DNA of 64,000 bases from Nitrospirota bacterium (GTDB taxonomy: Bacteria; Nitrospirota; Nitrospiria; 2-01-FULL-66-17), in NCBI GenBank assembly GCA_049325295.1, contig JBMOMD010000033.1, positions 11,588 through 75,587 on the forward strand, in the 5' to 3' direction. The notes beneath the pieces are model-generated. The model ran no database searches. It was given only the letters and a program-made list of their open reading frames with translations, and was not told the origin of the DNA. The position numbers and the translations under genes are program-made. Of the stretch, positions 1 through 64,000 are shown one piece after another; position 1 is the stretch's first letter; each line of letters begins with the position of its first letter.

Positions 1-10
1 CATCAAGAAA

Positions 11-496
11 ATGGTATTCCCATCCGAGATCCTGCCGATCGTGAAAGTAGCGGCTGCGGTCGTCACTCATCTGATCGGGTTGGCGCTTCTACTCTGCCTA
101 TTGGGGGTTGTCGGGGATGGGATCTCGTGGCGGGTTGCGCTGATCGTGCCGTATCTGATCACTATCGTGTTCTTCGCATTGGGGATCTCGTGGGCGCTGT
201 CTGCGGTGAATGTCTTCGTGCGTGATATCGGGCAGGTGATTGGTGTCTTCGTCAACATTTGGTTCTTCTTGACGCCGATCGTTTATAGCCAAACGCTTGT
301 TCCGAATCCGCTGCAAGGTTTGTATGCTCTCAATCCGATGATATACGCCGTGGACGGATACCGATCCGCCATCCTGGGGACGGGAGCCGTTGACGTCAAT
401 GGGGTTGCCTATCTGGGGCTGCTGGGGCTGGCTGCATTCGCAATCGGGGGAGTGGTCTTCAAGAGGCTAAAGCCACAGTTTGTGGACGTTCTATAA
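11..496 (+). CDS. ABC-2 type polysaccharide exporter permease (Wzm/TagG-like), 5'-truncated at window edge
   Basis: Hydrophobic multi-TM translation; C-terminal 'LNPMIYAVDGYRSAILG' ABC-2 permease signature; immediately upstream of a Wzt-like ATPase. Confidence 0.75.
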   Translation: MVFPSEILPIVKVAAAVVTHLIGLALLLCLLGVVGDGISWRVALIVPYLITIVFFALGISWALSAVNVFVRDIGQVIGVFVNIWFFLTPIVYSQTLVPNPLQGLYALNPMIYAVDGYRSAILGTGAVDVNGVAYLGLLGLAAFAIGGVVFKRLKPQFVDVL

Positions 497-501
497 CGGG
501 T

Positions 502-1722
502 ATGCCTAAAGCGCTGGACGTTCAAGATCTCAGAAAGGTCTATCGGCTCTATCGTTCGCCGAAAGATCGCCTGCTGGAGCTTATCAGCCTGAAAGGTGGT
601 GGCCATCACAGGGAGTTTCCCGCCCTCGACGGGGCGTCATTCACTCTCGATCGAGGCGAAACCCTCGGAGTCATCGGACGAAATGGAAGCGGGAAGAGCA
701 CGTTGTTGAAGATTTTATGCGGCGTCACCCGCCCGACAAGTGGGACGGTTGAGGTGAGCGGACGGGTGGCTTCGTTGCTTGAATTGGGCGCCGGGTTTCA
801 CCCTGAATTCAGTGGGCGCGACAATGTGTATATGAATGGCTCGCTGATGGGGTTCAATAAGTCCGCGATGGACCGCCGACTCCCTGAAATCGAAGCGTTT
901 GCCGAGATCGGAGAGTTTATCGACCAACCGGTGAAGCGGTACTCCAGTGGCATGTTCGTTCGCCTGGCGTTCTCCGCCGCCATTAGCGTGGAGCCGGACA
1001 TTCTGATCATCGACGAGGCTTTGGGTGTTGGAGACCTCGGATTTCAGTTGAAATGCATTGAGAAACTCAAGGCGTTTCAACGGGAGGGACGCACGATCAT
1101 TTTGGTGACGCACCAGTTCCAAGCGTTGCGGAACTTCTGCACGCGCGTCCTTTGGTTGGATCAAGGAAAGATTCGGGGCGACGGTGATGTGATTACGGTG
1201 ACCGACGCATACCGAGATTTCATGAGTTGGGGCCAAGGTGCGGGGCAAGAAGCCGCGACGGAGGACGAGGACTCCGGAGGCTCCGTCTTGTCGATAAGTA
1301 GCGTGGATATCTTGGATAGGAACGTTCGCAAGGCAGAGGCGATCGAGTTCGGCGCTCCATTCTCGGTTGCGGTTTCCTATCGGCTGCATAAGCCATATGA
1401 GGGCCTCGTTGGGGGTGTGGCTATCGTGGGTAGAGAGGGAGTTACGGTCTGCGGCCTCACAACGAAGCGTGATGGTATTTCGCTCCCATCGGTGGCGGGG
1501 TCTTATACGCTGAACGTTTCCTTTCCTGAGCCCAAATTGCTTCCAGGAGCGTATCGAATCCGAGTCGTATTTCTCGAAAGTTCCGGGGTTGGTCGCATCG
1601 CCGTACAATACGATGCTGCTTCATTCACGGTGCGATCAACGGGGTACAAAGCGGAGGGTTTGTATTTACTTGCGCATCATTGGACCGTGAATGCTCTCTC
1701 CGACGCTGACGTGAAGAGGTGA
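502..1722 (+). CDS. ABC transporter ATP-binding protein, Wzt/TagH-like, with C-terminal ~150-aa extension (putative glycan-cap binding domain)
   Basis: Walker A 'GRNGSGKST', ABC signature 'YSSGMFVRLAFS', Walker B 'ILIIDEAL'; 406 aa versus ~250 for a bare NBD. Confidence 0.85.
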   Translation: MPKALDVQDLRKVYRLYRSPKDRLLELISLKGGGHHREFPALDGASFTLDRGETLGVIGRNGSGKSTLLKILCGVTRPTSGTVEVSGRVASLLELGAGFHPEFSGRDNVYMNGSLMGFNKSAMDRRLPEIEAFAEIGEFIDQPVKRYSSGMFVRLAFSAAISVEPDILIIDEALGVGDLGFQLKCIEKLKAFQREGRTIILVTHQFQALRNFCTRVLWLDQGKIRGDGDVITVTDAYRDFMSWGQGAGQEAATEDEDSGGSVLSISSVDILDRNVRKAEAIEFGAPFSVAVSYRLHKPYEGLVGGVAIVGREGVTVCGLTTKRDGISLPSVAGSYTLNVSFPEPKLLPGAYRIRVVFLESSGVGRIAVQYDAASFTVRSTGYKAEGLYLLAHHWTVNALSDADVKR

Positions 1723-1798
1723 CATGTCTAGCGGCGTTATTCCAGGGCGATCCGAGCGTGCCCCACGGAGAGCGGGATGATCGGGACTGCGTGGGGTC

Positions 1799-4618
1799 AT
1801 GAGGGGTGTGGTGGACGCTGAGAACTCGCCGCGAGCCGTGTGTATTCTCGGCATGCACCGCAGCGGCACGTCGGTGGTGTCGCGGGCCGTGAATCTGCTC
1901 GGTGCCTACATCGGCGAGGAGCGACAGTTGTTGCCTCCGGCGCCCGACAACCAAGAAGGGGTGTTCGAACGGCGCGATGTAGTCGAGTTCCATGACCGGC
2001 TGCTGTCGCGGCTTTTACGGCAGTGGCATTCGGTCGGGCTGCTGCCGGATGAGTGGGAGGGTCGCCCGGAGATTCGACCGTTCCGGGAGGAGCTCAGGAA
2101 GCTGGTCGTGACGCAGTTCGGGAAACACCCGTTGTGGGCGTGGAAGGATCCTCGGACGACCTTGCTGCTCCCGCTCTGGAAGGATGTGTTGGCCGAGTTG
2201 GGCATCTTGTTGTCCTGCGTGTACGTGGTGCGCAATCCGCTCGACGTCGCGCGGTCGCTCAAGAAACGCGACGGCTTTTCGTTCGAAAAATCGTGGGCCA
2301 TGTGGTTGACGGCGAATCTGTCCGCGCTGGATGCGGTTCACGATGTTCCGACCGTGTTCGTGTCGTACGACCGCCTGTTGAGCGATTGGGAGCCGGAGTT
2401 GCGGCGCTGTGCAACGGCGCTCGGGATTTCGTGGCCTGCCGACGACACGAGCATTCGCGAGGGCCTGCAGGGCTTTCTTCGCCCGGAGCTGCGGCACAGT
2501 GCGTCCCAGGCTGTCGAGTTATCGTCCGAACGCGCCCCTGACGGCGTCATTGAACTGTACCGGCTGCTGTGTGATGCCGCCAACGACGCGAAGCCGTTTT
2601 TGGATCCAGGGGTTCGCGCTGAGGTCGCCCGTGTTCGTCGGGGATTCTGCGATGCAGCGGGATTTTTTCGTCATGACATCGAGCGGCTGCTGGGGGCGGT
2701 GCGCGGACTTGAGCGGCAGGTCGAAAAACTTACCGTCGCGGCGAAGGAGCGAGAGGATGAGTTCAACCGCATCCATTATAAGTTCGCACGGCATCTCCTA
2801 ATAAAGTACCAGCGGGTGCGGGACATTCTGTGTCCCCTCCAATCCCGTCGACGCGCGGCTTACAGTTGGCTGGACATGCAGGCCAGGAAGATTATCGAGC
2901 ACGGCCCAGTGAATCTCCTCTACATGAAGTACTGGCCCTACCGGTTTTGGATCGCCAAGAACGAGCCGAAGGCCGCCCGGTTCCCGGCGATGCGGGCGGA
3001 GGCCAATGCCTGGTCATATCGGCCGCTGGTCAGCCTGGTGACGCCGGTGTTCAATCCCACGCGTTATGCCCTGACACGCTGTCTCGAGTCCGTGGCCAAT
3101 CAGCTCTACGACCGCTGGGAGCTGTGTATCGTCGACGGGAGATCAGATCAGCCGTACGTAAGGGAGATCATCGAGGAGTTCGCGCGCAAGGACCCAAGAT
3201 TCAAATTCGCACGGCTGGAATCGAATCGCGGGATCGCCGGCAACGCGAACGAGGCATTGCGGCTGGCGTCAGGAGAGTTTGTAGGGTTTCTGGACCACGA
3301 CGATACGCTCGCGCCCTTTGCGTTGTACGAAGTCGTGAAGGTGCTCAATCAGGGCGCGCGCGCGGACTTCATCTACTCCGATGAAGACAAGGTGCCGGCC
3401 ACCGGCGCAAGGCGATATGCCCCCGAGTTCAAGTCGGGGTGGGCGCCAGACACGTTCCTGTCCTACAACTACCTGTGCCACTTTGCGGTGGTGAGGAAGC
3501 GGATACTGGATGATCTGGGCGGGTTTCGCGAGGGGTACGACGGAGCGCAGGATTACGATCTGCTGTTGCGCGTCGTCGAGAAGACACAGGCGATTCGGCA
3601 CATTCCCAAGGTACTGTATCACTGGCGGGCCGCAGCCGAGTCGACTGCGGCCGGGGTGAAGCTGAAGCCGTATGCCGTCTCAGCCGCAAAGAAGGCCATC
3701 GGGGAATATTTAACTCGCCGCGGCCTGGACGCGGAGGTCATGGACGGCGACGCGCTGGGAAGTTACCGCGTCAAGTATCGCGTGCGGCCGGGTCAGCGCG
3801 TCAGCATCATCGTGCCCACCAGAGACAAGGTGCATCTGCTGGAACGTTGCGTGTCGTCCATCCTCGCCAAGACGAGTCACGAGGCCCTCACGATCCTGAT
3901 CGTCGACAACGGGAGTCGGGAGCCGGAGACGTTGGCGTACTTTGACCGCATTAAGGATCACGCCAAGGTCCGGGTGGAGCGGTACGACGAGCCCTTCAAT
4001 TTTTCCGCCATCAATAACTTTGCGGTTCGCGGCACGGACTCGGACTATCTGGTTTTTCTGAACAATGACACCGAGGTGATCAGCCCCGAGTGGCTCGACG
4101 CCATGTTGGAGTTCGCGCAGCGCGATGACGTGGGCGCGGTCGGCGCCAAGCTGTACTACCCTGATGACACCATCCAGCACGCCGGGACCATCGTAGGCTA
4201 TTGGGGCGTGGCGGACCACGCGCACAAGCATTATCCCCGGTCGGCCCGCGGGTACATGGGACGGATCAATATCATTCAGAATCTGAGCGCCGTCACGGCC
4301 GCGTGTATGATGATGCGCCGAAAGGTGTTCGACGAAGTGGGCGGGTACGACGAGGCGTTCTCGCATTCGTTCAACGACGTGGATCTCTGCCTGAGAATTC
4401 GGGACAAGGGCTATCTTGTCGTCTATACCCCGTACGCCGAGCTCTATCACCATGAATCCGTGAGTCGGGGCCATGACGAAAAACCGGAGGAGCGAGCGCG
4501 GCTGGACCGGGAGATCGCATTGATGAAGACGCGCTGGAAGCGCGTCTTCGATGCCGGCGATCCGTATTACAGTCCAAATCTCACGCTCGAGAAGACGGAT
4601 TTTAGCTTCAGAATTTAA
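1799..4618 (+). CDS. Tri-domain glycan biosynthesis enzyme: N-terminal sulfotransferase + two GT2 glycosyltransferase domains
   Basis: aa 15-155: 'ILGMHRSGTSV' (5'-PSB) and 'VVRNPLDVARS' (3'-PB) sulfotransferase motifs. Two GT2 cores ('VSLVTPVFNP..FLDHDD' and 'VSIIVPTRDK..IVDNGS..FLNNDT'). Confidence 0.8.
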   Translation: MRGVVDAENSPRAVCILGMHRSGTSVVSRAVNLLGAYIGEERQLLPPAPDNQEGVFERRDVVEFHDRLLSRLLRQWHSVGLLPDEWEGRPEIRPFREELRKLVVTQFGKHPLWAWKDPRTTLLLPLWKDVLAELGILLSCVYVVRNPLDVARSLKKRDGFSFEKSWAMWLTANLSALDAVHDVPTVFVSYDRLLSDWEPELRRCATALGISWPADDTSIREGLQGFLRPELRHSASQAVELSSERAPDGVIELYRLLCDAANDAKPFLDPGVRAEVARVRRGFCDAAGFFRHDIERLLGAVRGLERQVEKLTVAAKEREDEFNRIHYKFARHLLIKYQRVRDILCPLQSRRRAAYSWLDMQARKIIEHGPVNLLYMKYWPYRFWIAKNEPKAARFPAMRAEANAWSYRPLVSLVTPVFNPTRYALTRCLESVANQLYDRWELCIVDGRSDQPYVREIIEEFARKDPRFKFARLESNRGIAGNANEALRLASGEFVGFLDHDDTLAPFALYEVVKVLNQGARADFIYSDEDKVPATGARRYAPEFKSGWAPDTFLSYNYLCHFAVVRKRILDDLGGFREGYDGAQDYDLLLRVVEKTQAIRHIPKVLYHWRAAAESTAAGVKLKPYAVSAAKKAIGEYLTRRGLDAEVMDGDALGSYRVKYRVRPGQRVSIIVPTRDKVHLLERCVSSILAKTSHEALTILIVDNGSREPETLAYFDRIKDHAKVRVERYDEPFNFSAINNFAVRGTDSDYLVFLNNDTEVISPEWLDAMLEFAQRDDVGAVGAKLYYPDDTIQHAGTIVGYWGVADHAHKHYPRSARGYMGRINIIQNLSAVTAACMMMRRKVFDEVGGYDEAFSHSFNDVDLCLRIRDKGYLVVYTPYAELYHHESVSRGHDEKPEERARLDREIALMKTRWKRVFDAGDPYYSPNLTLEKTDFSFRI

Positions 4619-4658
4619 GAGGGTGGCCGTAGCCGAGCAGGCTATTCAGGGCGGGCGC

Positions 4659-5711
4659 GTGTCCGTCGCTCTGGCCACGTACAACGGCGGCTGGTACCTC
4701 GGGAAGCAACTTGAGAGCCTGGCGTCGCAAACGCTCAAGCCTCGCGAGCTGGTGGTCTGCGACGACGGTTCAACCGACGACACGGTCGCGATTCTTAAGG
4801 CATTTGCGTCCCGCGCCGCGTTCCCGGTACGGGTTCACGTCAATGACGTGAATCTCGGTTCCACCAAAAATTTCGAGCAGGCGATCCAGCGTTGCCAAGG
4901 CGATTTCATCGCGTTGTGCGATCAGGACGACGTGTGGCGTCCCCACAAGCTGGAGCGGGTGGTCGCGGCGTTCGGGGCTTCCCCGGATCTTGACGCCGTA
5001 TTCAGCGACGGCGAGGTCGTGGATGAGGACCTGCGGCCGTTGGGCTACGGACTATGGGATGCGGCGGGGTTTGGTGCGGTGCGTCGCCAGCGTATGGCGC
5101 AGGGGCGCGCGCTCGAGGTCTTGCTGAAAAACGACGTGGTCACCGGCGCCACCCTGGTGTTTCGCCGAGCGTTTCGCGACACGATCGTCCCGATTCCAGA
5201 GGTTTGGGTGCACGACGCGTGGATCGCGCTGGTGATCGTGGCGCTCGGAGGAAAACTGGGGGCCATCGACGACCCGCTGATTCTGTATCGCAAGCATCGC
5301 CGGCAACAAGTCGGTGTGGTCTCGCGTTCGGATGACGGCGCGCTGGCGTGGGTCTGGTCGTCGTTGGGAGACGTGCGGCGTGACGTGGACGGCTACGTGG
5401 CGACCGGCGACGAGCTATACGCCTTGTTCGCGGAGCGGTACCAGGCCGCGGGCGAGCGGCTGGCGGCTCTCGGCGACCGCGTGGATCCGCGCGCGGTCGC
5501 GGGATGCCGGGCCAAGGTCGCGCACTTTCGCGCCCGGATCGCGATGACGGCCCATCCCTGGTTGAGGTTTCCATTGGTTCTCGGCGAGTTGGCGCGCCTT
5601 CGCTATTTCCGGTATTCGAGCGGGGCCAAGAGTCTGGCCAGAGATCTGGTCCGCGCGGCCATGTTTTGGACTCCGCCGGGTCATCGGAGTCCTCGGGTGT
5701 CGGTGTGGTGA
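4659..5711 (+). CDS. Family 2 glycosyltransferase (track ORF starts 4551; GTG 4659 likely true start)
   Basis: 'VSVALATYNGGWYL..LVVCDDGSTDDT..ALCDQDDVW' GT2 fold; ORF 4551 overlaps upstream gene so an internal GTG start is favoured. Confidence 0.7.
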   Translation: MSVALATYNGGWYLGKQLESLASQTLKPRELVVCDDGSTDDTVAILKAFASRAAFPVRVHVNDVNLGSTKNFEQAIQRCQGDFIALCDQDDVWRPHKLERVVAAFGASPDLDAVFSDGEVVDEDLRPLGYGLWDAAGFGAVRRQRMAQGRALEVLLKNDVVTGATLVFRRAFRDTIVPIPEVWVHDAWIALVIVALGGKLGAIDDPLILYRKHRRQQVGVVSRSDDGALAWVWSSLGDVRRDVDGYVATGDELYALFAERYQAAGERLAALGDRVDPRAVAGCRAKVAHFRARIAMTAHPWLRFPLVLGELARLRYFRYSSGAKSLARDLVRAAMFWTPPGHRSPRVSVW

Positions 5712-6676
5712 CCCCTCACACGAACATCCCCTTGGTGGTGATCATCGTGCTGAACTGGAACGGGCGCGACGACACCGTGGCGTGCGTCGAGTCGGTCCGC
5801 GGGTTGCGGTATCGCAAGGCCAATGTGTTGATCGTGGACAACGGGTCAACGGATGATTCGGTCGCGACGTTCTCTCGGCGATTTCCGGATATCCGCTGCA
5901 TTCAGACCGGTGAGAATCTTGGGTTCGCCGAGGGCAACAACGTGGGCATGCGCGCGGCATTGGCGGAGGGCGCGGACTACGTGTTCCTGCTGAACAATGA
6001 TGCGACGATCGAACCGGATGCGCTCGATCGGTTGGTCGATGCGGCGGAATCACACCCCGATGTCGGCATCGTCGGGCCCAAAATCTATTACGCGGCTGAG
6101 CCCAAGCGAATCTGGTACGCGGGCGGCACGATTAGTCCGCTGGGACGGCTTGGCCACGAGGGGTGGAACCGGATCGACGACGGGCAATGGGACACGCCGC
6201 GCGAGACCGGGTACGTGACGGGCTGCGCCTTCCTGGTCAAGCGTGCGGTGTTGGAGAAGGCCGGCTTGTTCGCGCCGGAGTACTTTCTGCTGTTTGAAGA
6301 AGCCGACCTCTGCGTGCGCGGGCGGCGCGAGGGTTTTCGGTCTTGGGTGGAGCCTCGGGCAACCGTGTATCACAAGGTCTCGGCGTCATTCGGCGGTTTT
6401 TCGCCGCGGTATTACTACTACTTTCTGCGAAACTACCTGCTCTTTCAGCGCCGTCACGTGATTCCGGTGAAGGGATGGGCGGCGCGGCTCGCCATCGCGT
6501 TCTATGTGGTTCGCGTGTTCGCATATTTGACCCTGACGCCGCATCGCGGCGGCTGGCGGAACCTGGCCGCGGCGTGGGAGGGAGTCGGGGATTACCTGCG
6601 CGGGCGATGGTTCGAGCGCGGCGTACACCGTCGCCTGGGCGAGGACGCAGCATGGCGGGTATCAGCTCGAATATGA
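5705..6676 (+). CDS. Family 2 glycosyltransferase (rhamnosyltransferase-like); start GTG 5705/5708 overlapping upstream stop
   Basis: '[53 protein letters not shown]' GT2 motifs; GTGA overlap with preceding gene. Confidence 0.75.
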
Positions 6677-7236
6677 GAGAAAGGGGAGCCTCAGTGGGAA
6701 AGACAGCGAGTGGTTTTACGATCTGGTTCACCGGCCTGTCCGGCGCGGGCAAGACCACGGTCGCTCATCGATTGGCGGAGATGTTGCAGCAGCGCATGGG
6801 CCGCGAGGTCGAGATCCTGGACGGGGACGTGGTGCGCACGCACCTGAGCAAGGGGCTTGGGTTCAGCCGCGAGGATCGCGACACCAATATCCGGCGCATC
6901 GGCTGGGTCTGCCACGTGTTGACCAAACACGGGGTGCCAAACATCGCGGCCGCGATTTCCCCGTACCGCGGGGTGCGCGATGAGGTGCGCAAGATGGTGG
7001 GGCGGTTCGTGGAGGTCTACGCCGACTGTCCGCTCGATGTGTGCGAGCAGCGCGACGTGAAGGGGCTGTATCGCAAGGCGCGGGCCGGCGAGCTCAAGCA
7101 ATTCACGGGGATCGACGATCCGTACGAAGCGCCGCTTAATCCCGAGGTCACGCTGCACACGGACCGGGAGAGCGTGGAGCAGAGCGCGATGAAGGTCGTT
7201 CGGAAGCTGGAGGAGATGGGCTGGTTGGGGCGGTAG
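6673..7236 (+). CDS. cysC: Adenylyl-sulfate (APS) kinase, stand-alone
   Basis: '[15 protein letters not shown]' P-loop, '[10 protein letters not shown]', 'SPYRGVRDE' typical of CysC; ATG 6673 overlaps upstream TGA (ATGA). Alternative starts 6652 / 6694. Confidence 0.85.
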
Positions 7237-7383
7237 GGGTCAGGGCGCGTCGTGGGTCGCCGGCTCGGTGAGAAATGGGGCAATTCGCTGGGTGCGCAAT
7301 GGGTTGTTGGTCGTACGGGCCATCCAAACTGCTGGGTTCGCGAAAGGCACCTTTGGTGCGAGCCGTGCGGCAGATGTGGTGTG

Positions 7384-7680
7384 TTACGCGGCGCTGCGGG
7401 ACCAGGTCTGAGCCCTGGTGATGAGTTCCTCCCGGAAACGCGGCCAGTCGTGTAGAGTGGCAGGGTCGAAATCAGCGCCGTTCGGCCACGCTATTGTCCG
7501 GACTTCGTGATCAATGCGGACCTGCTGAAACAGGGACGAATCTCGTAACGGCCCGTAGAGTTCTCCCGCCAGCACCGGTTCAAAGTCGATTACCTGGACA
7601 CTGCGGTCGTCGAACGTGAGTCGCAGGGTATATGCGCCCACGATCTCAACGTGTGTCACACTGTGAATTGGGTGTTCCAT
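7384..7680 (-). CDS. DUF2442-family small protein (putative antitoxin partner of DUF4160)
   Basis: ~98-aa translation from 'MEHPIHSVTHVEIVG..' matches DUF2442 pattern; directly downstream of a DUF4160 gene on the same strand. Confidence 0.65.
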   Translation of the reverse strand: MEHPIHSVTHVEIVGAYTLRLTFDDRSVQVIDFEPVLAGELYGPLRDSSLFQQVRIDHEVRTIAWPNGADFDPATLHDWPRFREELITRAQTWSRSAA

Positions 7681-7691
7681 GTCTCGTCTCC

Positions 7692-7961
7692 TCACGAGAG
7701 CGGTCTGATCGGCACCGCTTTCCGACCATCTTGCAAGAGGCGCCAATCGTTGAGCAACTCGGCCTGGTGAAGTTCTGCCCAGGCTTCGACCAGGCGCTGC
7801 TGGCGTGTCGGGAGCGCCCCCGCAATCTGTGCAACCGGCTCGATACTGTAGATGCCGACCTTGTCCTGATAGTACGCGTGGAAATGGGGAAGGTGATGCG
7901 GTCCACCGATTTCCACGTACATACGAATGATGATCCCAAAAAATCGGCTGATCTCGGGCAT
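7692..7961 (-). CDS. DUF4160-family small protein (putative toxin-like partner)
   Basis: '[31 protein letters not shown]' is the characteristic DUF4160 N-terminus; start trimmed from track ORF 8036 to the conserved Met. Confidence 0.65.
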
Positions 7962-8046
7962 GAGACCGTACCAGTGGTGGCAGCCTACCAGGAGGAATAG
8001 GACGGTGTCAAACGACGGGCGATCTGGTACGCCCACGCCACTCCGT

Positions 8047-8223
8047 GATTTCCAAGGCCTCTACCGCAAGGCGCGGGCCGGCGAGCTCAAGCAATTCACG
8101 GGGATCGACGATCCCTACGAAGCCCCGCTTGACCCTGAAGTTACACTGCACACGGACCGGGAGAGCGTGGAGCAGAGCGCGTTGAAGGTCGTGCGGAAGC
8201 TGGAAGAGCTGGGGTGGTGCTGA
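8047..8223 (+). pseudogene. Diverged duplicate of the 3' end of cysC (APS kinase C-terminal 57 codons), not a complete gene
   Basis: Encodes '[53 protein letters not shown]', near-identical to cysC residues at 7063-7236 with many synonymous differences. Confidence 0.7.
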
Positions 8224-8355
8224 CGCGTCGCGCATCTGGTTGTGTTCATCGACTCACGGTATGCGATACGAGTAAGAAGAAAATGAACATGGTCATAGTC
8301 GGCGCCTGAATCCGTCGCGTTGACATGGTGTAGCCAATAGGATACACTTCCCTCC

Positions 8356-8646
8356 GTGATGGAAATTCGCAAGACCGACGTGTTCGCCAAATGGCTCGAC
8401 CGGCTGCGCGACATTCGGGCCAGGGCGCGCGTTCAGGCCAGGATCGAGCGGCTGGCGTTTGGAAACGCGGGGGACGTCAAGCCGGTTGGCGAAGGCGTCT
8501 CGGAGCTGCGGATCAACTACGGGCCGGGATACCGGGTGTACTTTACCAAGCGTGGGCGCGACGTGGTAATTCTCCTGGCGGGAGGGGACAAGAGCACTCA
8601 AGCCGGCGATGTCGAACTCGCCTTGCGCCTGGCACGCAACCTATAG
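8356..8646 (+). CDS. Type II toxin, RelE/ParE superfamily (HigB-like addiction-module killer protein)
   Basis: 96 aa; 'FAKWLDRLRD..RARVQARIERL..GDVKPVGEGVSELRINYGPGYRVYF' typical of HigB-like toxins; antitoxin immediately downstream. Confidence 0.8.
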   Translation: MMEIRKTDVFAKWLDRLRDIRARARVQARIERLAFGNAGDVKPVGEGVSELRINYGPGYRVYFTKRGRDVVILLAGGDKSTQAGDVELALRLARNL

Positions 8647-8655
8647 GAGTGTACA

Positions 8656-8955
8656 ATGCGAAAAACTACAACCAGTCGCTACGATGTCGCCGAGCACCTC
8701 CGAACTCCCAAGGAGATGGCCGCCTACTTTGAAGCGTGCCTCGAAGAGGCCAACGGCGACGCGGCGTTTATTGCCAAGGCTCTGGGGGACATTGCCCGTG
8801 CGAGGGGCATGGCACAGGTCGCTCGCGATGCGGGCCTTTCCCGAGAAAGCCTTTACAAGGCGCTCTCCGGTCGACGCAGCCCGGGCTTCGACACGATCCT
8901 CAAGGTCATCGCAGCGCTGGGATTGAAGTTGCACGCGGAAGCGATTCGGAACTAA
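8656..8955 (+). CDS. HigA-family antitoxin (XRE-type HTH addiction-module antidote protein)
   Basis: 99 aa; 'YDVAEHLRTPKEMAAYFEACLEE..AFIAKALGDIARARGMAQVARDAGLSRESLYKALS' matches HigA-type antidote proteins. Confidence 0.8.
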   Translation: MRKTTTSRYDVAEHLRTPKEMAAYFEACLEEANGDAAFIAKALGDIARARGMAQVARDAGLSRESLYKALSGRRSPGFDTILKVIAALGLKLHAEAIRN

Positions 8956-9365
8956 CGACGTTCGCCCACCTCGTGATGACGATCAGGGGCGGCACGAGCC
9001 GGCGCCGGATTGTAGAGGCGTGCGTTCCAACGGAACAATGGACAGCCCGCCCCGTTCGCCTTCCTGCTGACGGAGGACAAGCTCCGCGAGTGCCGTGCGA
9101 TGACGGCCGAAGAAACGCTGCGCTGGCTTGAAGAGGTCAAGGCCTTCGTGAGGAATCGTGCTCCCGGAGCGGTTGGCGCGATGGACGCGACTTCTTCAAG
9201 AACGTGACGGGCCGGCCCGCGCCGGCGACGATCGTCCGTAGTCATTGATCAGGTTGTCGCGGCCGACGCCCCACGCCTCGCCACGAACCAACACCGAACA
9301 CCGAACAACGCCTCTACCGGCTAACCGGCCCACCGGCTAACCGGCGAACCGCACTGTCATCAAAA

Positions 9366-9977
9366 TCAGTTCAACCCCGGGTCCCGCGGCATATTCGCGT
9401 ATTTGGCGTGGCGCGGGCCCAGCGAACGCATCAACTCCGGCCACACCACTTTGGGGTCCGCGTCGAAAATCCATTTGGAGTCGGCGGGCACCACGATCCA
9501 GGAGTCCGTTTCCATTTCCGTGTCGAGTTGGCCCTGCGACCAGCCGGCGTATCCGGCGTAGCCGCGAAACGCGGCTTCCTGCGGCATGGGCGGGATCTCG
9601 GCGGCGCCCGGCGCGGCTTCGCGCTCCGCGGTCGGGTCGAGCAGGGATTTGAGGGTCGGGAGGTCCGTGCCGAGGTACACGTCGCCGAACACGTGGTGGG
9701 ACGAGGGCGGCGTCAACTCGGAGCGGATCAGAATCAACAGGTGATCGGGCTGCACTGGGCCGCCGGAATAGATGACGTCGTCGCGCTCGGTGCCGGCGAG
9801 CTGGTGCACGGCTTCGGTGAGCACGAGTTCGGTCGGTCGGTTGATCACCAACCCCATGCTGCCGCGATCGTTGTGCTCGCAGAGCAGGATCACCGCCTGC
9901 CGAAAATTCGGGTCGTACATGCCGGGACCCGCGATGAGAAAGGTCCCTTTGTCGAGCGTGGGGGTCACGAAATCCAT
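9366..9977 (-). CDS. YqgE/AlgH family protein (UPF0301)
   Basis: 'LIAGPGMYDPNFRQAVILLCEHNDRGSMGLVINRP' signature; start trimmed to the conserved Met. Confidence 0.8.
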   Translation of the reverse strand: MDFVTPTLDKGTFLIAGPGMYDPNFRQAVILLCEHNDRGSMGLVINRPTELVLTEAVHQLAGTERDDVIYSGGPVQPDHLLILIRSELTPPSSHHVFGDVYLGTDLPTLKSLLDPTAEREAAPGAAEIPPMPQEAAFRGYAGYAGWSQGQLDTEMETDSWIVVPADSKWIFDADPKVVWPELMRSLGPRHAKYANMPRDPGLN

Positions 9978-10255
9978 CGTATAACCGGCTCGATGGAAAG
10001 TCCAGCGCGGCCGTAACGGCGCGCGCGTGGTCGGGGCGCGATTTCTTGACAAGGGGTACCCCCTGGGCTAGAGTCAGCTCCGCACGGCGAGTATAGTAAC
10101 TATAGTCGGCGGATCGCCGCGCCGTGCGCCGCACCATCAGTCCCGGGTCGGGGAAGACCAACAAGGATGACTGGGAACCATAGGGACGTGATGCGCAGCC
10201 TCCGTATGGCCCGACTGGGCGTCCAAGCCGTCGGTTCACAACGCGGGATGGTCGC

Positions 10256-11938
10256 GTGACCCCGCGCTGGGTCAACTCGTACGAGCCCGGGATCTCCCCC
10301 GCGCTCCGGTATCCCGCCGTTCCCCTGCATCAACTGCTCGCCGCCACGGCCGCGAAGTATCCGGAGAATCCCGCGTTGGATTTCTACGGGCGTCGCGTGA
10401 CCTACCGGGAGTTGGACCGCGCCGCGAACCGGTTCGCCAACGCCCTCGCCGGCTTGGGCGTTCGCAAGGGGGATCGGGTGGCGGTGATGTTGCCCAACGC
10501 GCCGCAGGCCGTGATCGCGTATTACGGCGCGCTCAAGCTCGGGGCGGTGGTGGTCGAGGTCAATCCGCTGTACGTTGAACGGGAAATCGAACAGCAGGTG
10601 CGCGACGCCGAGGCGCGCGTGCTGGTGGCGCTCGATCTGTTCTATCCGCGGATCGAGCCCATCCGGGCGCGCGCGGGGCTGGAGGCCGTGATCATCACCT
10701 CGGTGCGGGACGCGTTGCCGTGGCATCTGGCCTTGTTGTACCCGATCAAGGCGTGGCGCGAAGGCACGCGCGTGTCCGTGCCCAACACTCCGCCCGTGTA
10801 CGAGTACCGATCGCTCGTGGCCGCGGCGTCGGAGACGGCCCCGGCCGTCGAGGTGGCGCCGGACGATCTGGCGCTCCTGCAATACACCGGCGGCACCACC
10901 GGGATTCCCAAGGGCGTGATGCTCACCCACCGGAACCTGGTCGCCAATACCCTGCAATGCCGCGCGTGGATGCCGTCCTTGCGCGACGGCGCGGAGGTCT
11001 TTCTGGGCGTGGTCCCGTTTTTCCACGTGTACGGGATGACCGCCTGCATGAATCTGGCGATTTACACCGGCGGGTTGATCGTGTTGCTCCCGCGCTTCGG
11101 GACCAAGGACGTGTTGCGCGCCATCGTGAAGTCGCGCGCCACGATCTTCATGGGCGTGCAGGCGATGTACGTGGCGATCAATAATTTCCCGGACGTGCGC
11201 CGATACGATCTCTCGACCATTCGCATCTGCATCAGCGGCGCGGGTCCGTTGCACGTGGAGGTCCAGGAGCGGTTCGAGGCGTTGACCGGCGGCAAGGTGG
11301 TGGAAGGGTTCGGGTTGAGCGAGGCCTCGCCGGTCACGCACGTCAATCCGATCTTCGGGCGACGGATCAAGGGCACCATCGGGTTGCCGTTGCCGGACAC
11401 CGAGGCTAAAGTAATGGACGTGGAGTCGGGAACGCGCGAGATGCCCCTGGGCGAGGCCGGTGAATTGGTGATCCGCGGGCCTCAAGTCATGAAGGGGTAT
11501 TGGCGGCGTGCCGATGAAACCGCCGGGGTCTTGCGCAACGGCTGGCTGCACACCGGGGACATCGCGACCGTTGACGCCGACGGGTATTTCACGATCGTGG
11601 ACCGCAAGAAGGACATGATCAAGACCAAGGGCGAAAACGTCTATCCGCGCGACATCGAGGAAGTCCTGTTCCGGCATCCCAAGATCAAGGACGCGGTCGT
11701 GGTCGGGGTGCCGGAAGAGTTCATGGGCGAGATGATCAAGGCGTACGTGGTGCTCCGGGACGGCGAAACCGCGACCGAAAACGAGATCGTCGAATATTGC
11801 GGACGGGAATTGGCCAAATTCAAGGTGCCCAAAGCCGTGGAATTCCGTCAGGAACTGCCGCGGACCATCGTGGGGAAAGTGCTGCGCCGCGTCCTGTTGG
11901 ACGAGGAGCTGAAGAAACGTCATGCCATGGCAGGATGA
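10256..11938 (+). CDS. fadD: Long-chain fatty acid-CoA ligase
   Basis: AMP-binding motif 'LQYTGGTTGIPKGVMLTHRNL', 'GYGMTA', C-terminal 'GKVLRR'. Confidence 0.85.
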   Translation: MTPRWVNSYEPGISPALRYPAVPLHQLLAATAAKYPENPALDFYGRRVTYRELDRAANRFANALAGLGVRKGDRVAVMLPNAPQAVIAYYGALKLGAVVVEVNPLYVEREIEQQVRDAEARVLVALDLFYPRIEPIRARAGLEAVIITSVRDALPWHLALLYPIKAWREGTRVSVPNTPPVYEYRSLVAAASETAPAVEVAPDDLALLQYTGGTTGIPKGVMLTHRNLVANTLQCRAWMPSLRDGAEVFLGVVPFFHVYGMTACMNLAIYTGGLIVLLPRFGTKDVLRAIVKSRATIFMGVQAMYVAINNFPDVRRYDLSTIRICISGAGPLHVEVQERFEALTGGKVVEGFGLSEASPVTHVNPIFGRRIKGTIGLPLPDTEAKVMDVESGTREMPLGEAGELVIRGPQVMKGYWRRADETAGVLRNGWLHTGDIATVDADGYFTIVDRKKDMIKTKGENVYPRDIEEVLFRHPKIKDAVVVGVPEEFMGEMIKAYVVLRDGETATENEIVEYCGRELAKFKVPKAVEFRQELPRTIVGKVLRRVLLDEELKKRHAMAG

Positions 11939-11977: not shown

Positions 11978-13168
11978 ATGAAAGACGTGGTGATCGTTGA
12001 CGGAGTTCGCACCCCGATCGGGAACTTCGGCGGGGCCTTGAAGGACGTGACCGCCCATGCCATGGGCGCGGCCGTGGTCAAGGCGGTGGTGGAGCGCACC
12101 AAAATCGCGCCCGACGCGGTGGACGAGGTGATTTTCGGCTGCGTGGGCCAACACTCCGACGCGACCAACATGGCCCGCAACATCGCGCTCTACGCGGGCC
12201 TGCCGATCACGGTGCCGGCGTACACGGTCCAGCGCAATTGCTCCTCCGGGTTGCAGTCGCTGGTCAACGCGTACCAGAACATCCAGGCCGGCGACGCGGA
12301 CGTGCAGATCGTGGGCGGCACCGAGAGCATGAGCCAGGCCCCGTTCGTGTCGCGCGACATGCGGTGGGGCAAACGCCTCAAACACGGCTCGTTCATCGAC
12401 AGCATCTGGGAAGGGTTGACCGACGGGTTCTGCGGCCAGATCATGGGGTACACCGCGGAGACGTTGGCCGAGGAGTTCAAGATCGGCCGCGAAGAGCAGG
12501 ACAAGTTCGCCCTGCTCTCGCACAAGCGGGCGTTTCGCGCGGTGCGGGAGGGTAAGTTCAAGGACGAACTCATGACGGTGATGGTGCCCAAGAAGATGGC
12601 CGGCAAGGAGGTCACGCCCGAGCCGTTCGCGCAGGACGAAGGGCCGAACGCCGCGCTCACCGAACAGCAGCTCGCGCTCTATCCCACCGTGTTCAAGGAG
12701 GGCGGAACCGTCACCCCCGGCAACTCCTGTTCGCTCAACGACGGCGCCGCGGCCGCGCTCGTGATGTCGGCGGAGCGGGCCCGCGCGCTCGGGTACGAGC
12801 CGCTGGGATACATTCGGTCGTACGCGTTCGTCGGGGTCGAGCCGCAGCGCATGGGGATCGGGCCGGCCGAGGCGATTCCGATCGCGCTCAAGAAGGGCAA
12901 GCTGTCGCTGGCCGACATCCAACTGTTCGAGATCAACGAGGCGTTCGCGGCCCAATATCTGGCCGTGGAGCGCAAGTTGGGCCTGAATCGCGACATCGTG
13001 AACGTGAACGGCGGCGCGATCGCGTTGGGCCACCCGGTGGGCATGACCGGCACCCGGCTCGCGATCACGGTGCTCCGCGAGATGAAACGCCGGAACCTGA
13101 ATCTCGGGATCGCGAGCATGTGCGTGGGCGGGGGCATCGGCGCCGCCATGGTGCTGGAGAGAAAATAA
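11978..13168 (+). CDS. Acetyl-CoA acetyltransferase (thiolase)
   Basis: 'VVIVDGVRTPIG', active-site 'NRNCSSGLQ', C-terminal 'NVNGGAIALGHPVGMTG'. Confidence 0.9.
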   Translation: MKDVVIVDGVRTPIGNFGGALKDVTAHAMGAAVVKAVVERTKIAPDAVDEVIFGCVGQHSDATNMARNIALYAGLPITVPAYTVQRNCSSGLQSLVNAYQNIQAGDADVQIVGGTESMSQAPFVSRDMRWGKRLKHGSFIDSIWEGLTDGFCGQIMGYTAETLAEEFKIGREEQDKFALLSHKRAFRAVREGKFKDELMTVMVPKKMAGKEVTPEPFAQDEGPNAALTEQQLALYPTVFKEGGTVTPGNSCSLNDGAAAALVMSAERARALGYEPLGYIRSYAFVGVEPQRMGIGPAEAIPIALKKGKLSLADIQLFEINEAFAAQYLAVERKLGLNRDIVNVNGGAIALGHPVGMTGTRLAITVLREMKRRNLNLGIASMCVGGGIGAAMVLERK

Positions 13169-39169: not shown

Positions 39170-39550
39170 ATCCCCCCTCGCCCCCCTTTTTCAAAGGGGG
39201 GGAATAACGATGCCTGAATGGATCTGAAGAGTGAATATCAACGTGCCTGCTTTGTTCCAAATCCCCCCCCTTTTTCAAAGGGGGGGATAACGATGCCTGA
39301 ATGGATCCGAAGAGTGAACATCAACGTGCCTGCTTTGTTCCAAATCCCCCCCTTTTTCAAAGGGGGGGGATAACGATGCCTGAATGGATCCGAAGAGTGA
39401 ACATCAACGTGCCTGCTTTGTTCCAAATCCCCCCCCCTTTTTCAAAGGGGGGGGATAACGATGCCTGAATGGATCTGAAGAGTGAATATCAACGTGCCTG
39501 CTTTGTTCCAAATCCCCCCTTTGGAAAAGGGGGGCTGGGGGGGATTTCGC
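39168..39550. repeat. Tandem array, ~4.4 copies of an 85-89-bp unit, each with a C7-TTTTTCAAA-G7 hairpin
   Basis: Unit 'aaatcccccccctttttcaaagggggggataacgatgcctgaatggatcYgaagagtgaaYatcaacgtgcctgctttgttcc' repeated head-to-tail; last copy degenerate. Confidence 0.85.
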
Positions 39551-39900
39551 TCCACTATGGTCCTATAAATCATCTCGACGACTACGGTCGTTTCCCGCAG
39601 CACCTGCGCATTATCGAATCGAAGCACACACAACCCCTGCCCCAAGCAATACTGATCGCGTTCGACATCGCGCGCTGCGTGACCAGCATCCATGTGTTGC
39701 GATCCGTCAACCTCTACAACGATGTGCGCCTCAGGCGCATAGAAGTCCACAATAATGGGTCCGAGTGGTTTCTGTCGATAGAACTGCACGCCCAGGATCT
39801 GTTTCCGGCGTAGGCGTGACCAGAGGAGGTGTTCGGCGTCGGTCAGAACTCGCCGAAGACGTCGGGCGGGCTGTTTGAGGTTGCGATTATAGGGGAGCAT
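39442..39900 (-). CDS. DUF559 endonuclease-domain protein (Vsr-like fold); C-terminus runs into the repeat array
   Basis: 'MLPYNRNLKQPARRLRRVLTDAEHLLWSRLRRKQILGVQFYRQKPLGPIIVDFYAPEAHIVVEVDGSQH' typical DUF559; the last ~25 codons are encoded by repeat units. Confidence 0.6.
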   Translation of the reverse strand: MLPYNRNLKQPARRLRRVLTDAEHLLWSRLRRKQILGVQFYRQKPLGPIIVDFYAPEAHIVVEVDGSQHMDAGHAARDVERDQYCLGQGLCVLRFDNAQVLRETTVVVEMIYRTIVERNPPQPPFSKGGIWNKAGTLIFTLQIHSGIVIPPL

Positions 39901-41045: not shown

Positions 41046-41178
41046 GCCGTCGAGGCAAATCCCCCCACCCCCCCCTTTTTCAAAGGGGGGATAAAGATGC
41101 GGTTCCAGGTGTCCAGCGGGGCTCATTGTAACCCAGCGGCTGATTGGATATGCTGCGGCTGTTGTCGCGAGCCATGAC

Positions 41179-54192: not shown

Positions 54193-55161
54193 ATGGAAGA
54201 GGTTAAACCCGGGAGCTGGCCGATGACGCGTCTCGTGCATTCCTCGCTGGTTCTCGTGGTCCTGTTCTGGACCACGTCCGTTGCCTGGTCGTATCAGATT
54301 TCGGAACCGACGAACGGCGGCAGAATCACCGGAATCGTGACGCTGCGAGGCCAAATTCCGCAGCCGCGCGCGTTTCCCATGGTGCTGTATCCGCACGGGG
54401 AGTTCTGCAAAAAGCTCTCCGATGGGAACGGCCACGTCCTGCTCAAGGAGTTCAACGTCGACTCGTCCGGGGCGCTCCAAGACGTGGTGGTGGCGGTGCA
54501 GAACGTGTCTCACGGCAAGGCGTTTCGTTCCCGGGATACGGATCTCGAAACCGTGAACTGCATGTTCCACCCCGCGGACGTGCCGGAGAGCGAACAGTTC
54601 GCCCATCGCGAGGGACACCTGGTCCACATCCATCCGCTCGTGACCGTGATGCGCGACCCGAGCCTGCTGACCGTGGCCAACCGCGACCCGATCGTGCACG
54701 CGGCGCAGGTGTATCAGGCGGAGAAGGGCAATCGGGTCCTGAGTTTTCCGATTCCGGTGTCCTACAGACCGAACAGCGGGTACGTGGACCTGGAAAAAGG
54801 TAAACGGATCGTGCAGATCATTTGCGGCATGCACGAGTACATGCAGACGTGGGCGTGGGTGGTGGACAACCCGTACTTTGCCAAGACCCACGCGGGCGGC
54901 GGGTTCGCGATCGACAAGCTGCCGCCGGGAACCTACCGCGTGCTGGCGTGGCATCCGCACATGAAGCCGATCGTCAAAGAGGTCGTGGTTCCGGCCGACG
55001 GTGCGGTGACGCTGGACTTTGAGTTCGACGCGAGCCAGGTGGTCCGGCCGATCTATGAGACGCAGGAACAGTTCCGCATCCCGCCGACCCGCGATCCCGC
55101 GGTCGACCTGAGCGGGTGCGAAGGGCCGTATTGCGTGAAACGGGAACACGACCACCACTGA
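54193..55161 (+). CDS. Secreted CarboxypepD_reg-like + cupredoxin-like protein (paralog of 62500..63465)
   Basis: Signal peptide; 'NRDPIVHAAQVY' and 'ICGMHEYMQTWAWVV' (C-x2-H-x2-M); C-terminal 'CEGPYC'. Confidence 0.6.
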   Translation: MEEVKPGSWPMTRLVHSSLVLVVLFWTTSVAWSYQISEPTNGGRITGIVTLRGQIPQPRAFPMVLYPHGEFCKKLSDGNGHVLLKEFNVDSSGALQDVVVAVQNVSHGKAFRSRDTDLETVNCMFHPADVPESEQFAHREGHLVHIHPLVTVMRDPSLLTVANRDPIVHAAQVYQAEKGNRVLSFPIPVSYRPNSGYVDLEKGKRIVQIICGMHEYMQTWAWVVDNPYFAKTHAGGGFAIDKLPPGTYRVLAWHPHMKPIVKEVVVPADGAVTLDFEFDASQVVRPIYETQEQFRIPPTRDPAVDLSGCEGPYCVKREHDHH

Positions 55162-62499: not shown

Positions 62500-63465
62500 A
62501 TGTCGAGCAAGGGGAACGCAATGCGGCGTGTCACTGGTGTACGAGGTGTCTTAACAGGATTGGTCGTGGCGGCAGTGGCCGGGGGCTCGCTGGCCTGGGC
62601 CGTTCCTGATTATGAGGAGACGACGGTGAGCAACGCCGGCAGCATTACCGGCACCGTGAGCTTAACCGGGCCGATTCCCGAACCCAGGGTGTTCCCCTTG
62701 GTCCTGTATCCATTCGGTCCATTCTGCAAAAAGATTTCGGACGGCCGCGGCCATATTCAGGTGGACGAGTTCCTCGTGTCATCGGACCGTGGACTGCAAG
62801 ATACGATCGTCGCGGTCCAGCAGGTCAGGAAGGGCAAGCCGTTTCCGCCCCTCAAACAGGAGCTGGTGGCGGTAGACTGCATGTTCCATCCCGCGGAGAC
62901 CGCGGAGGACGAACTGTTTGCGATCGACGCCAAGGGCAAGTTGCACCACGAGCACCCCTTGGTCATGGTGCTGAGAAATCACCAGCCGATCTGGGTGGTC
63001 AACCGCGACCCGATCATCCACAACGGGCAGGTCTTTCAGAACGAAAAGGGCAATATCATTCTCAACTTCCCATTGCCGGTGGCCGAGGAACCGCGCGGCG
63101 GCATGCTGGATTTCGATCCGGGAAAACGCGTCTCCCAGATGATTTGCGGCATGCACGAATTTATGCAGGCGTGGGGATTCGTCGTGGACAATCCGTACTA
63201 CGCGCGAACCAAGAAAGACGGGAAATTCACGATCGACGGACTGCCGCCCGGCACCTATCGCGTGGCCGCGTGGCATCCGCACTTGCCGATCATCGAGCGG
63301 GAAGTAACGGTGCCGGCCGACGGCACGGCGTCATTCGATGTGGTATTCGACGGGTCGCGGGTCGTGCGTCCTGCGTACGAAAGCCAGGAGAAGTTTCGGA
63401 TCGGGCCGGAGGCGCGTCCCCATGAACACCTGGAAGAATGCGTGCCTCCCTATTGCGAGGAGTAG
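62500..63465 (+). CDS. Secreted CarboxypepD_reg-like + cupredoxin-like protein
   Basis: Signal peptide; 'NRDPIIHNGQVF', 'ICGMHEFMQAWGFVV' (C-x2-H-x2-M), 'GTYRVAAWHPH', C-terminal 'CVPPYCEE'; ~55% identical to 54193..55161. Confidence 0.6.
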   Translation: MSSKGNAMRRVTGVRGVLTGLVVAAVAGGSLAWAVPDYEETTVSNAGSITGTVSLTGPIPEPRVFPLVLYPFGPFCKKISDGRGHIQVDEFLVSSDRGLQDTIVAVQQVRKGKPFPPLKQELVAVDCMFHPAETAEDELFAIDAKGKLHHEHPLVMVLRNHQPIWVVNRDPIIHNGQVFQNEKGNIILNFPLPVAEEPRGGMLDFDPGKRVSQMICGMHEFMQAWGFVVDNPYYARTKKDGKFTIDGLPPGTYRVAAWHPHLPIIEREVTVPADGTASFDVVFDGSRVVRPAYESQEKFRIGPEARPHEHLEECVPPYCEE

Positions 63466-63467
63466 CG

Positions 63468-64000
63468 TATGAACACGCGAGCGGTGATCGGGCGACTGGT
63501 CGCGGCCGGATGGGCGGGTCTGGTGATCCTGACCGGGGCATCGGTGAGCTGGGGGTACGAAGAGGTCTCGGTGCGTGACGGCGGCACCATCACCGGCCGG
63601 GTGGTGCTCAATGGGCCGCCGCCGCCGGCCAGGATCTACCACATGGTGTTCTCGCCGAACATCGACTTCTGTACTCGGATCTCCGACGGCAACGGGAACC
63701 GGCTGCTTCCGGAGTTTCGGGTCTCGGACGCCGGGGACTTTCAAGACGTGGTGGTGGCCGTGGTCGGCGTGGAGCGGGGCAAGCCGTTCGACTACACGCC
63801 GTCGTTGACGTTGGAAAACTGCCGCATGGGGCCGTTCGTCACCGCGGTCAGGAACGGCCACCCCTTGGCGATCGTCAACAAGGATCCCGTGGTTCACGAC
63901 GTGCAAGGCTACACCAGCGGTGATCCGTATACGTTCATGATGTTCAACAAGCCGATGCTGCCGGAAAGCAGCGTGTCGAAGGACATTCGTCTCAGAAACG
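63468..64000 (+). CDS. Secreted CarboxypepD_reg-like + cupredoxin-like protein, 3'-truncated at window edge
   Basis: Signal peptide; 'ITGRVVLNGPPPPARIYHMVFSPNIDFCTRISDGNGN' aligns with N-termini of the two paralogs above; 'NKDPVVHDVQGY' His-region. Confidence 0.55.

Follow-up and report, generated by a model that had tools for sequence, protein, structure and literature searches.

A diverged cysC fragment between two predicted toxin–antitoxin cassettes of a Nitrospirota genome as a probable scar of recombination between related lineages

How did a second, diverged copy of part of the cysC 3′ region come to lie downstream of an intact cysC? The question arises in a 64,000-nt stretch of a Nitrospirota bacterium genome (GenBank assembly GCA_049325295.1, contig JBMOMD010000033.1, positions 11,588 to 75,587 of the forward strand), hereafter the window. 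Here the intact cysC, which encodes an adenylyl-sulfate kinase of 187 aa, occupies 6673–7236 on the + strand (Pfam APS_kinase, E = 2e-62). We refer to the repeated part of this gene as R1 (7063–7225, + strand) and to the downstream fragment as R2 (8056–8218, + strand). An initial annotation of the sequence had read the arrangement as a cysC tail from another lineage, integrated at the 3′ end of cysC so that the two copies bound an insert carrying a DUF4160/DUF2442 gene pair. Our analysis upholds the separate history of the two tails, argues against the bounded insert and points to recombination between related lineages.

A repeat search found R1 and R2 as a direct repeat of 163 nt with 90% identity and a spacing of 993, listed as family D2 in a repeat scan of the whole window. 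In a tblastn search CysC matched the 64-kb window at 6673–7233 and 8044–8217 alone, and neither search found a cysC repeat in the window beyond this pair. The match is far above chance level; an overlapping Logan contig aligned to the window by blastn matches 126 nt of the repeat with E = 6e-45. In-register alignment and translation place the start of R2 homology at 8056, in the codon for Gly131 (GGG at 7063, GGC at 8056), and its end at 8218, one base into codon 185 and 11 nt before the position of the cysC stop. The duplicated part comprises 54 codons (131–184) of the 187-codon gene, and the final three codons (LGR) and the stop lie outside it. The initial annotation was right about the repeat and its orientation but drew the bounds too wide (8047–8223, 57 codons); the different ending that it noted, EELGWC-stop, is there, but GWC-stop marks the point where homology gives way to unrelated sequence. 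Upstream, 8023–8055 is not cysC, and R2 does not extend into a full second gene. Both ends of R2 are non-homologous junctions.

The pattern of divergence between the two copies is informative about their history. R1 and R2 differ at 16 positions in 162 nt, with 13 synonymous changes and three non-synonymous ones (N to D, M to L and M to L), in line with the mostly synonymous and conservative differences described at the outset. By the Nei–Gojobori method the synonymous divergence (dS) is 0.454 and the non-synonymous divergence (dN) 0.025, a ratio of about 0.05. Neutral change would be ~76% non-synonymous, against the 19% (3/16) observed, and the binomial probability of at least 13 synonymous changes in 16 under neutrality is 1.8e-6. 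This synonymous bias shows that R2 evolved within a functional cysC of another, closely related (sister) lineage, and it bears out the view that the repeat is not a recent internal duplication. That R2 is foreign but close also fits the 54-codon (162-nt) comparison, in which R1 and R2 are mutual nearest relatives with residues in common that are absent from L082, L086 and L087. The three non-synonymous changes and the lack of any frameshift or stop in R2 indicate that R2 has been a pseudogene for a small part of the divergence, which we estimate by hand from the dS and dN figures at roughly one tenth or less. R2 is now an inert pseudogene fragment without evident function. The 98-codon open reading frame that contains it (7927–8223) runs antisense into the start of the DUF4160 gene, and its Pfam match covers only positions 117–151 of the APS_kinase profile, the last 35.

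Within the repeat the longest identical runs measure 50 nt and 36 nt, and the same stretches are also largely conserved in the cysC genes of other relatives. Gene conversion between R1 and R2 was considered as the source of these runs and dropped, the stretches being nearly invariant in relatives.

Related contigs conserve both sides of the locus. The closest CysC proteins are 91% identical, and at the nucleotide level cysC is conserved at 85–88%. On the right the first conserved core gene is algH (DUF179; 9366–10052, − strand; Pfam and synteny); from algH rightward, through fadD, thiolase and other conserved beta-oxidation genes, the window and its relatives are 87–89% identical. The gap between cysC and algH, however, holds different toxin–antitoxin (TA) content in every relative examined: an AbiEii-like gene in contig L082, a HigB/helix-turn-helix (HTH) pair in L087 and L088, and, in the 4-kb gap of L086, a DUF433/DUF5615 pair, HicB, DUF2442, a second cysC fragment and another DUF433/DUF5615 pair.

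In the window, a spacer (7237–7338) that aligns weakly (about 60%) with the corresponding spacer of L089 separates the cysC stop from the DUF cassette, which with its upstream region spans 7339–8022 on the − strand. It comprises a DUF2442 antitoxin-like gene (7384–7680, − strand; Pfam, E = 2e-9) and a DUF4160 toxin-like gene (7692–7961, − strand; 89 aa from ATG; E = 6e-20). A DUF4160/DUF2442 pair has been validated experimentally as the type II TA system dhiTA in Dickeya dadantii (PMC8198452). Both Pfam matches are above the gathering scores and the order on the minus strand, DUF4160 and then DUF2442, is that of dhiTA with the toxin gene first, which makes the pair a predicted dhiTA-type module. 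As initially described, the segment between R1 and R2 holds this pair alone, on the opposite strand, with no recombinase detected by Pfam.

That the pair is not an insert bounded by the repeat is shown by the Logan contigs L089 and L090. Both have the order cysC tail, DUF2442, DUF4160, backbone and a homologue of window segment 9049–9192, with a DUF4160 protein 92% identical to that of the window; their cysC–DUF2442–DUF4160 region is 82–86% identical to it at the nucleotide level, and the stretch equivalent to 7339–8022 is 84.8% (L089) and 86.0% (L090) identical. Neither contains a second cysC piece or a RelE/ParE cassette. The backbone that follows the DUF pair measures 217 bp in L089 and 365 bp in L090 and is homologous to the post-cysC sequence of L082. 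Homology of the window to L089 and L090 stops exactly at 8022 and resumes at 9049, in a backbone segment that we call B (9049–9192) and that is common to L082, L089 and L090. The window-specific DNA is therefore 8023–9048, that is, R2 and what adjoins it, and the DUF pair belongs to an allele that exists with no second tail. No relative's cysC locus that we compared carries identical repeats.

L090 (reverse complement, about 630–719) has ~90–150 extra nt in the post-DUF backbone compared with L089. A short direct repeat (CGTGTCGGGCTG / CACGTCGGGCTG) flanks these extra nucleotides, which constitute another small indel polymorphism at the same spot.

The window-specific DNA begins with 33 nt (8023–8055) that match neither cysC nor the L089/L090 backbone. 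R2 follows, then a strain-unique spacer of 91 nt (8219–8309), a second TA cassette (about 8310–8968, + strand) and 80 nt of strain-unique sequence (8969–9048) that form its right end. In this cassette a promoter-like site (8320–8348, + strand; promoter scan) precedes a RelE/ParE-family (Gp49) toxin gene (8356–8646, + strand; PF05973, E = 2e-6) and a gene for an HI1420-type HTH antitoxin (8656–8955, + strand; PF21716, E = 7e-29). A Gp49/RelE-fold toxin followed by an HI1420-type HTH antidote is the Pfam signature of a RelE/ParE–HTH type II module, and NCBI names a protein identical to the 8356–8646 product a RelE/ParE family toxin. Copies about 83.6% identical in nucleotide sequence occur in unrelated contexts on at least seven contigs (L091–L097); homology to them is confined to about 8310/8320–8968, from promoter to stop codon, and in flank alignments neither sequence nor repeats were evidently shared outside the cassette. 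The operon behaves as a compact mobile cassette. A homologue with 70% identity lies on a Methylomonas plasmid, and a search of plasmid and phage DNA with 7237–9048 returned distant TA homologues on plasmids only and no phage match.

Displaced pieces of cysC are not confined to the window. L086 (JGI Ga0483989_0000622) offers an independent second example, a 5′-truncated and frameshifted fragment at 10872–11203 that starts at codon ~79. It follows the intact cysC at a distance of 2.3 kb and has a lone DUF2442 gene on one side and a DUF433/DUF5615 pair on the other. It differs from the intact copy of the same contig with dS 0.51 and dN 0.008 and is 94% identical to the cysC of L087, against 91% to its own intact copy. 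A start at codon ~79 there and at codon 131 here argues against a fixed attachment site. A further fragment is found in L002 (Nitrospirota metagenome-assembled genome CAZMYW010000027.1), the nearest GTDB representative among the matches listed, whose CysC, at 81% amino acid identity, is too distant for the locus to serve as an empty site. Here codons 12–47, the P-loop region, recur at 4798–4902, ~1.1 kb upstream of the intact cysC with a gene for an NAD-dependent epimerase between them. This 5′ fragment is a mirror-image scar, and it adjoins what we take, judging by eye, to be a putative MazF/PemK-type TA pair. Three cysC fragments in this Nitrospirota clade, in the window, L086 and L002, each abut a TA module, with the pair of L002 assigned by eye; by comparison, none of 79 other cysC loci, drawn from other clades and counted apart from L002, has a second cysC piece.

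L086 also contains a 390-bp segment duplicated at 87% identity (9847–10236 / 11988–12378).

The non-homologous ends of R2, the breakpoints that vary between the window, L086 and L002, the lack of a recombinase and the allele of L089 and L090 together argue for recombination between lineages over a site-specific element. We are confident that R2 is a scar of such an event, whichever way the DNA moved. Its structure looks like the outcome expected of homology-facilitated illegitimate recombination (HFIR). Two close Nitrospirota lineages would have carried different TA alleles in the fast-turnover cysC–algH gap: one parent resembling L089 and L090, with cysC, the dhiTA-type pair and backbone, and the other with a cysC of its own and the RelE/ParE–HTH cassette immediately after it. 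Linear DNA from one genome would have recombined into the other by one crossover in shared sequence, and the other joint would have been illegitimate and inside cysC, running from 8022/8023 to 8055/8056 with the 33 nt as filler. Both TA modules would have been kept in tandem, with 54 codons of the second cysC trapped between them. A donor from a related but distinct lineage is what the dS, dN and binomial values above point to. The left junction is non-homologous across the filler; on the right the homology of relatives resumes at 9049, and the crossover point could be localised only with the parental alleles.

As for direction, we hold it somewhat more probable than the reverse that the incoming DNA was the ~1 kb at 8023–9048, which contains R2 and the RelE/ParE cassette. 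Its right-hand anchor would have lain at 9049 or further on, and 0.2–0.4 kb of backbone would have given way to it. The comparison with L089 and L090 and the slightly longer branch of R2, which has somewhat more derived changes than R1, weakly favour this segment as the newcomer.

Several points weigh against this account. The second parental allele that it predicts, a full cysC ending in LGWC-stop followed by the equivalent of 8219–8309 and the RelE/ParE cassette, was not found in the collections searched. Homologues of the RelE/ParE toxin (91% and 89%; L097, L091–L096) all lay in different contexts that are homologous to the window over the cassette alone, and a clade-specific 47-mer searched against metagenome DNA, in a collection without the JGI samples of L082 and L086, retrieved only L087 and two unrelated cysC genes. 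No source was found for the 33-nt filler or the 91-nt spacer. No competence or DNA-transfer route is known in this uncultured lineage, and any microhomology at the illegitimate joint would be readable only with parental sequences. The direction signal itself is weak, coming from 162 nt with 38 synonymous sites. We compared dS of R1 and R2 against L082, L086, L087 and L089, counts of derived states and dS of the DUF genes, and these polarisation comparisons gave weak and partly conflicting signals.

Transfer in the opposite direction has a clearly lower probability. The resident would then have been cysC (R2)–RelE/ParE–algH, and the incoming DNA, resembling L089, would have brought part of the glycan cluster that lies upstream, a full-length cysC that includes R1 and, with it, the dhiTA-type pair. 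In this rather tentative proposal the DNA, anchored on the left by homology, would have joined illegitimately to the resident cysC at codon 131, truncating that gene but leaving its TA module in place. The final structure predicted is identical, and the scar would again be of the HFIR type; such an event, perhaps a one-in-a-few prospect, comes near the initial annotation, minus a discrete repeat-bounded element. An illegitimate joint in the resident cysC would be tolerable only if an intact cysC arrived. The content of the upstream cluster varies between relatives, with methyltransferases directly upstream of cysC in L082 and L086 and none there in the window, which speaks for this direction and against the one that we prefer; glycan clusters are classic targets of allelic switching. 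So does L086, where the fragment and its right flank are 94–96% identical to L087, against 90–93% for the intact copy, suggesting that in L086 the intact copy was the incomer. In the window, on the other hand, R1 and the 5′ part of cysC show the same divergence from L082 (dS 0.484 each), and R2 is the outlier, at 82% identity to L082 against 86% for R1 and 88–89% for both flanks; this weakly favours a foreign R2. The cysC–DUF arrangement moreover exists in three lineages, the window, L089 and L090, at a divergence typical of the region. What this rival keeps of the first reading is a weakened version, in which an incoming cysC tail and DUF pair would have displaced the resident cysC.

A site-specific integrative mini-element fares much worse. 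On this reading the 993-bp unit of cysC tail and DUF4160/DUF2442 would integrate into the cysC 3′ end via an attachment site (att) and be mobilised in trans by a recombinase encoded elsewhere. Direct repeats of a target-gene 3′ region do bound a segment, and the identical runs of 50 nt and 36 nt might be taken for att cores, but their conservation in relatives' cysC means that they need not be. The repeats differ synonymously over their whole length instead of showing a defined core with diverged arms, and unrelated sequence cuts R2 at both ends. The recombination point is not fixed, lying at codon 131 here and at ~79 in L086, with a 5′ fragment of codons 12–47 in L002. Relatives carry the DUF pair beside cysC without a second repeat, and a precise empty site is missing, since what L089 and L090 lack is 8023–9048 instead of the repeat-bounded segment. 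Pfam found no integrase, transposase or recombinase among 21 predicted proteins across positions 1–21,500. One Logan contig of sequencing run SRR32167792, L001 (window 7159–8181), has an identical 30-mer at its two ends, an overlap formally consistent with a circle; it is, however, expected from a de Bruijn graph of k = 31 for a repeat with a 36-nt identical core, and a second contig of the run, L098 (8152–10498), continues linearly into the chromosome. The initial annotation had proposed looking for the element elsewhere as a circular or cassette form; the 993-bp unit was found on no plasmid or phage, and the cassette that does recur is the RelE/ParE–HTH operon. We regard integration of such an element as very improbable.

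Equally hard to sustain is an origin in situ, whether the cysC 3′ region was duplicated in tandem and then diverged or a second, once functional cysC decayed. In its favour, R1 and R2 are mutual nearest relatives in the 54-codon (162-nt) comparison. The excess of synonymous changes runs counter to it, as does a dS of 0.45: this would need a long period as a second intact gene, while R2 contains neither frameshift nor stop. R2 is also flanked on both sides by non-cysC sequence that is common to relatives or replaced in them. A chimera joining two co-existing strain variants, conceivable in a metagenome-assembled genome at a strain-variable locus, is the least credible alternative of all, because L001 and L098, each 100% identical to the window, together span both R2 junctions, which lie in unique sequence, and because the identical runs reach 50 nt and 36 nt at most, short beside typical reads and the large k-mers used in assembly.

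The repeat may also have consequences. Identical runs of 50 nt and 36 nt meet the minimal homology for RecA recombination, and RecA-dependent deletion of the 993-bp unit would be possible, leaving a hybrid cysC that ends in GWC-stop. Such a C-terminus is plausibly tolerated because the CysC C-termini of close relatives vary (WLGR, WLP, GWL, GLLAP); the WLGR-stop of the intact gene is shared with close relatives. Deletion would also remove the dhiTA-type module, and addiction may oppose this loss. In that case the dhiTA-type cassette would be deletable by RecA or excisable yet held in place by addiction. Addiction may further bias exchange itself: recombinants in which the resident TA module is replaced would die, and survivors with an additive, illegitimate joint would remain, yielding tandem TA islets in which trapped core-gene fragments would recur as markers. 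This addiction-driven accretion is speculative, rests on three fragments in one clade and is, in our estimate, rather unlikely to be the explanation.

The intact gene itself is the terminal gene of a cluster (1–7236) that comprises a Wzm/Wzt ABC exporter, a sulfotransferase–GT2 fusion (1799–4618) and two more GT2 genes, as assigned by Pfam. Together with the established role of APS kinase, this content suggests that cysC probably supplies 3′-phosphoadenosine 5′-phosphosulfate (PAPS) for a sulfated (surface) glycan and not for assimilatory sulfate reduction. Its product is identical to MFZ5876670.1 of NCBI, from a Nitrospirota metagenome-assembled genome. Rfam and terminator scans of 6500–10300 gave nothing relevant, and the composition profile shows a mild GC dip over the TA genes and nothing else.

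Two further repeat families lie elsewhere in the window. At 39181–39519 an 83-bp unit occurs as four tandem copies (95% matches), all carrying a palindromic CCCCCCTTTTTCAAAGGGGGGGG hairpin motif, and an inverted repeat (39512–39555 / 41049–41092) supplies a related inverted copy 1.5 kb from the array, which looks like a REP/MITE-like (repetitive extragenic palindrome or miniature inverted-repeat transposable element) or regulatory repeat. A 58-nt segment occurs in three copies with 62–72% identity (54467–54524, 62786–62843 and 63731–63788); the copies probably stem from paralogous genes towards the right end of the window.

The locus is a clean, datable sequence fossil of the movement of an integrase-less TA islet between related genomes. 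At single-locus resolution it supports the spread of such islets through recombination at flanking core genes over spread by mobility machinery of their own. It also calls for caution in annotation: copies of a gene's 3′ region on either side of small genes do not in themselves amount to evidence of an integrative element. Islands whose insertion leaves a second copy of the target's 3′ end (tRNA or tmRNA genes, or att sites in protein genes) resemble this locus in that a direct repeat brackets foreign DNA and the gene stays intact. They differ in that no integrase is present here, that the repeat is diverged coding sequence that excludes the real 3′ end of the gene instead of an att core, that the breakpoint varies between loci and that relatives with the "cargo" lack the second repeat.

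Closer parallels are found in the C-terminal displacement of Rhs/CdiA proteins and type VI secretion system (T6SS) effector–immunity pairs. In the relevant passages of PMC2935791 and PMC5361080, a displaced 3′ fragment is kept downstream with an adjacent small module. Here, similarly, R2 is followed by the RelE/ParE–HTH cassette and the L086 fragment by a DUF433/DUF5615 pair. The orphan arrays of Rhs, CdiA and T6SS loci are, as presented in those passages, likewise products of tandem accretion at one locus, with HFIR as the proposed mechanism; the rationale given for retention is immunity, whereas at the cysC locus it would be antitoxin function and addiction. In contrast to those systems, cysC encodes a metabolic kinase (APS kinase) and no polymorphic toxin with a variable C-terminus, its two tails specify nearly the same protein (3/54 residues differ), and single fragments take the place of long arrays.

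TA islets of Photorhabdus are also comparable. They occupy high-turnover spots and lack mobile-element genes, and PMC13617665 proposes that homologous recombination in the core genes on either side accounts for their spread; like the locus here, they are small, contain only TA genes, lie between conserved genes and differ in content between relatives. At the cysC locus, by comparison, a piece of the flanking core gene is preserved beside the TA cassette, and no such fragment is described in the passages of that report that were searched. This preserved piece is direct evidence at the sequence level that core DNA from the flank either moved along with the exchange or was cut by it.

The best match is HFIR itself, which has been described in Acinetobacter, Streptococcus pneumoniae, Pseudomonas stutzeri and E. 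coli conjugation (references cited in PMC5361080; PMC3240628). For T6SS and Rhs loci, PMC5361080 proposes displacement of the HFIR type, with 3′ remnants left behind. As in those cases, one end at the cysC locus would be anchored by homology and the other joined illegitimately, foreign DNA is added, a short filler is possible and mobile-element genes are absent. Unlike them, the event here is read from comparative anatomy, and the illegitimate joint happens to fall within an extra copy of a gene that the genome also carries intact; the result is a diverged direct repeat. In this company the cysC locus is one more well-documented case of an already known type of event and adds no new system, mechanism or function.

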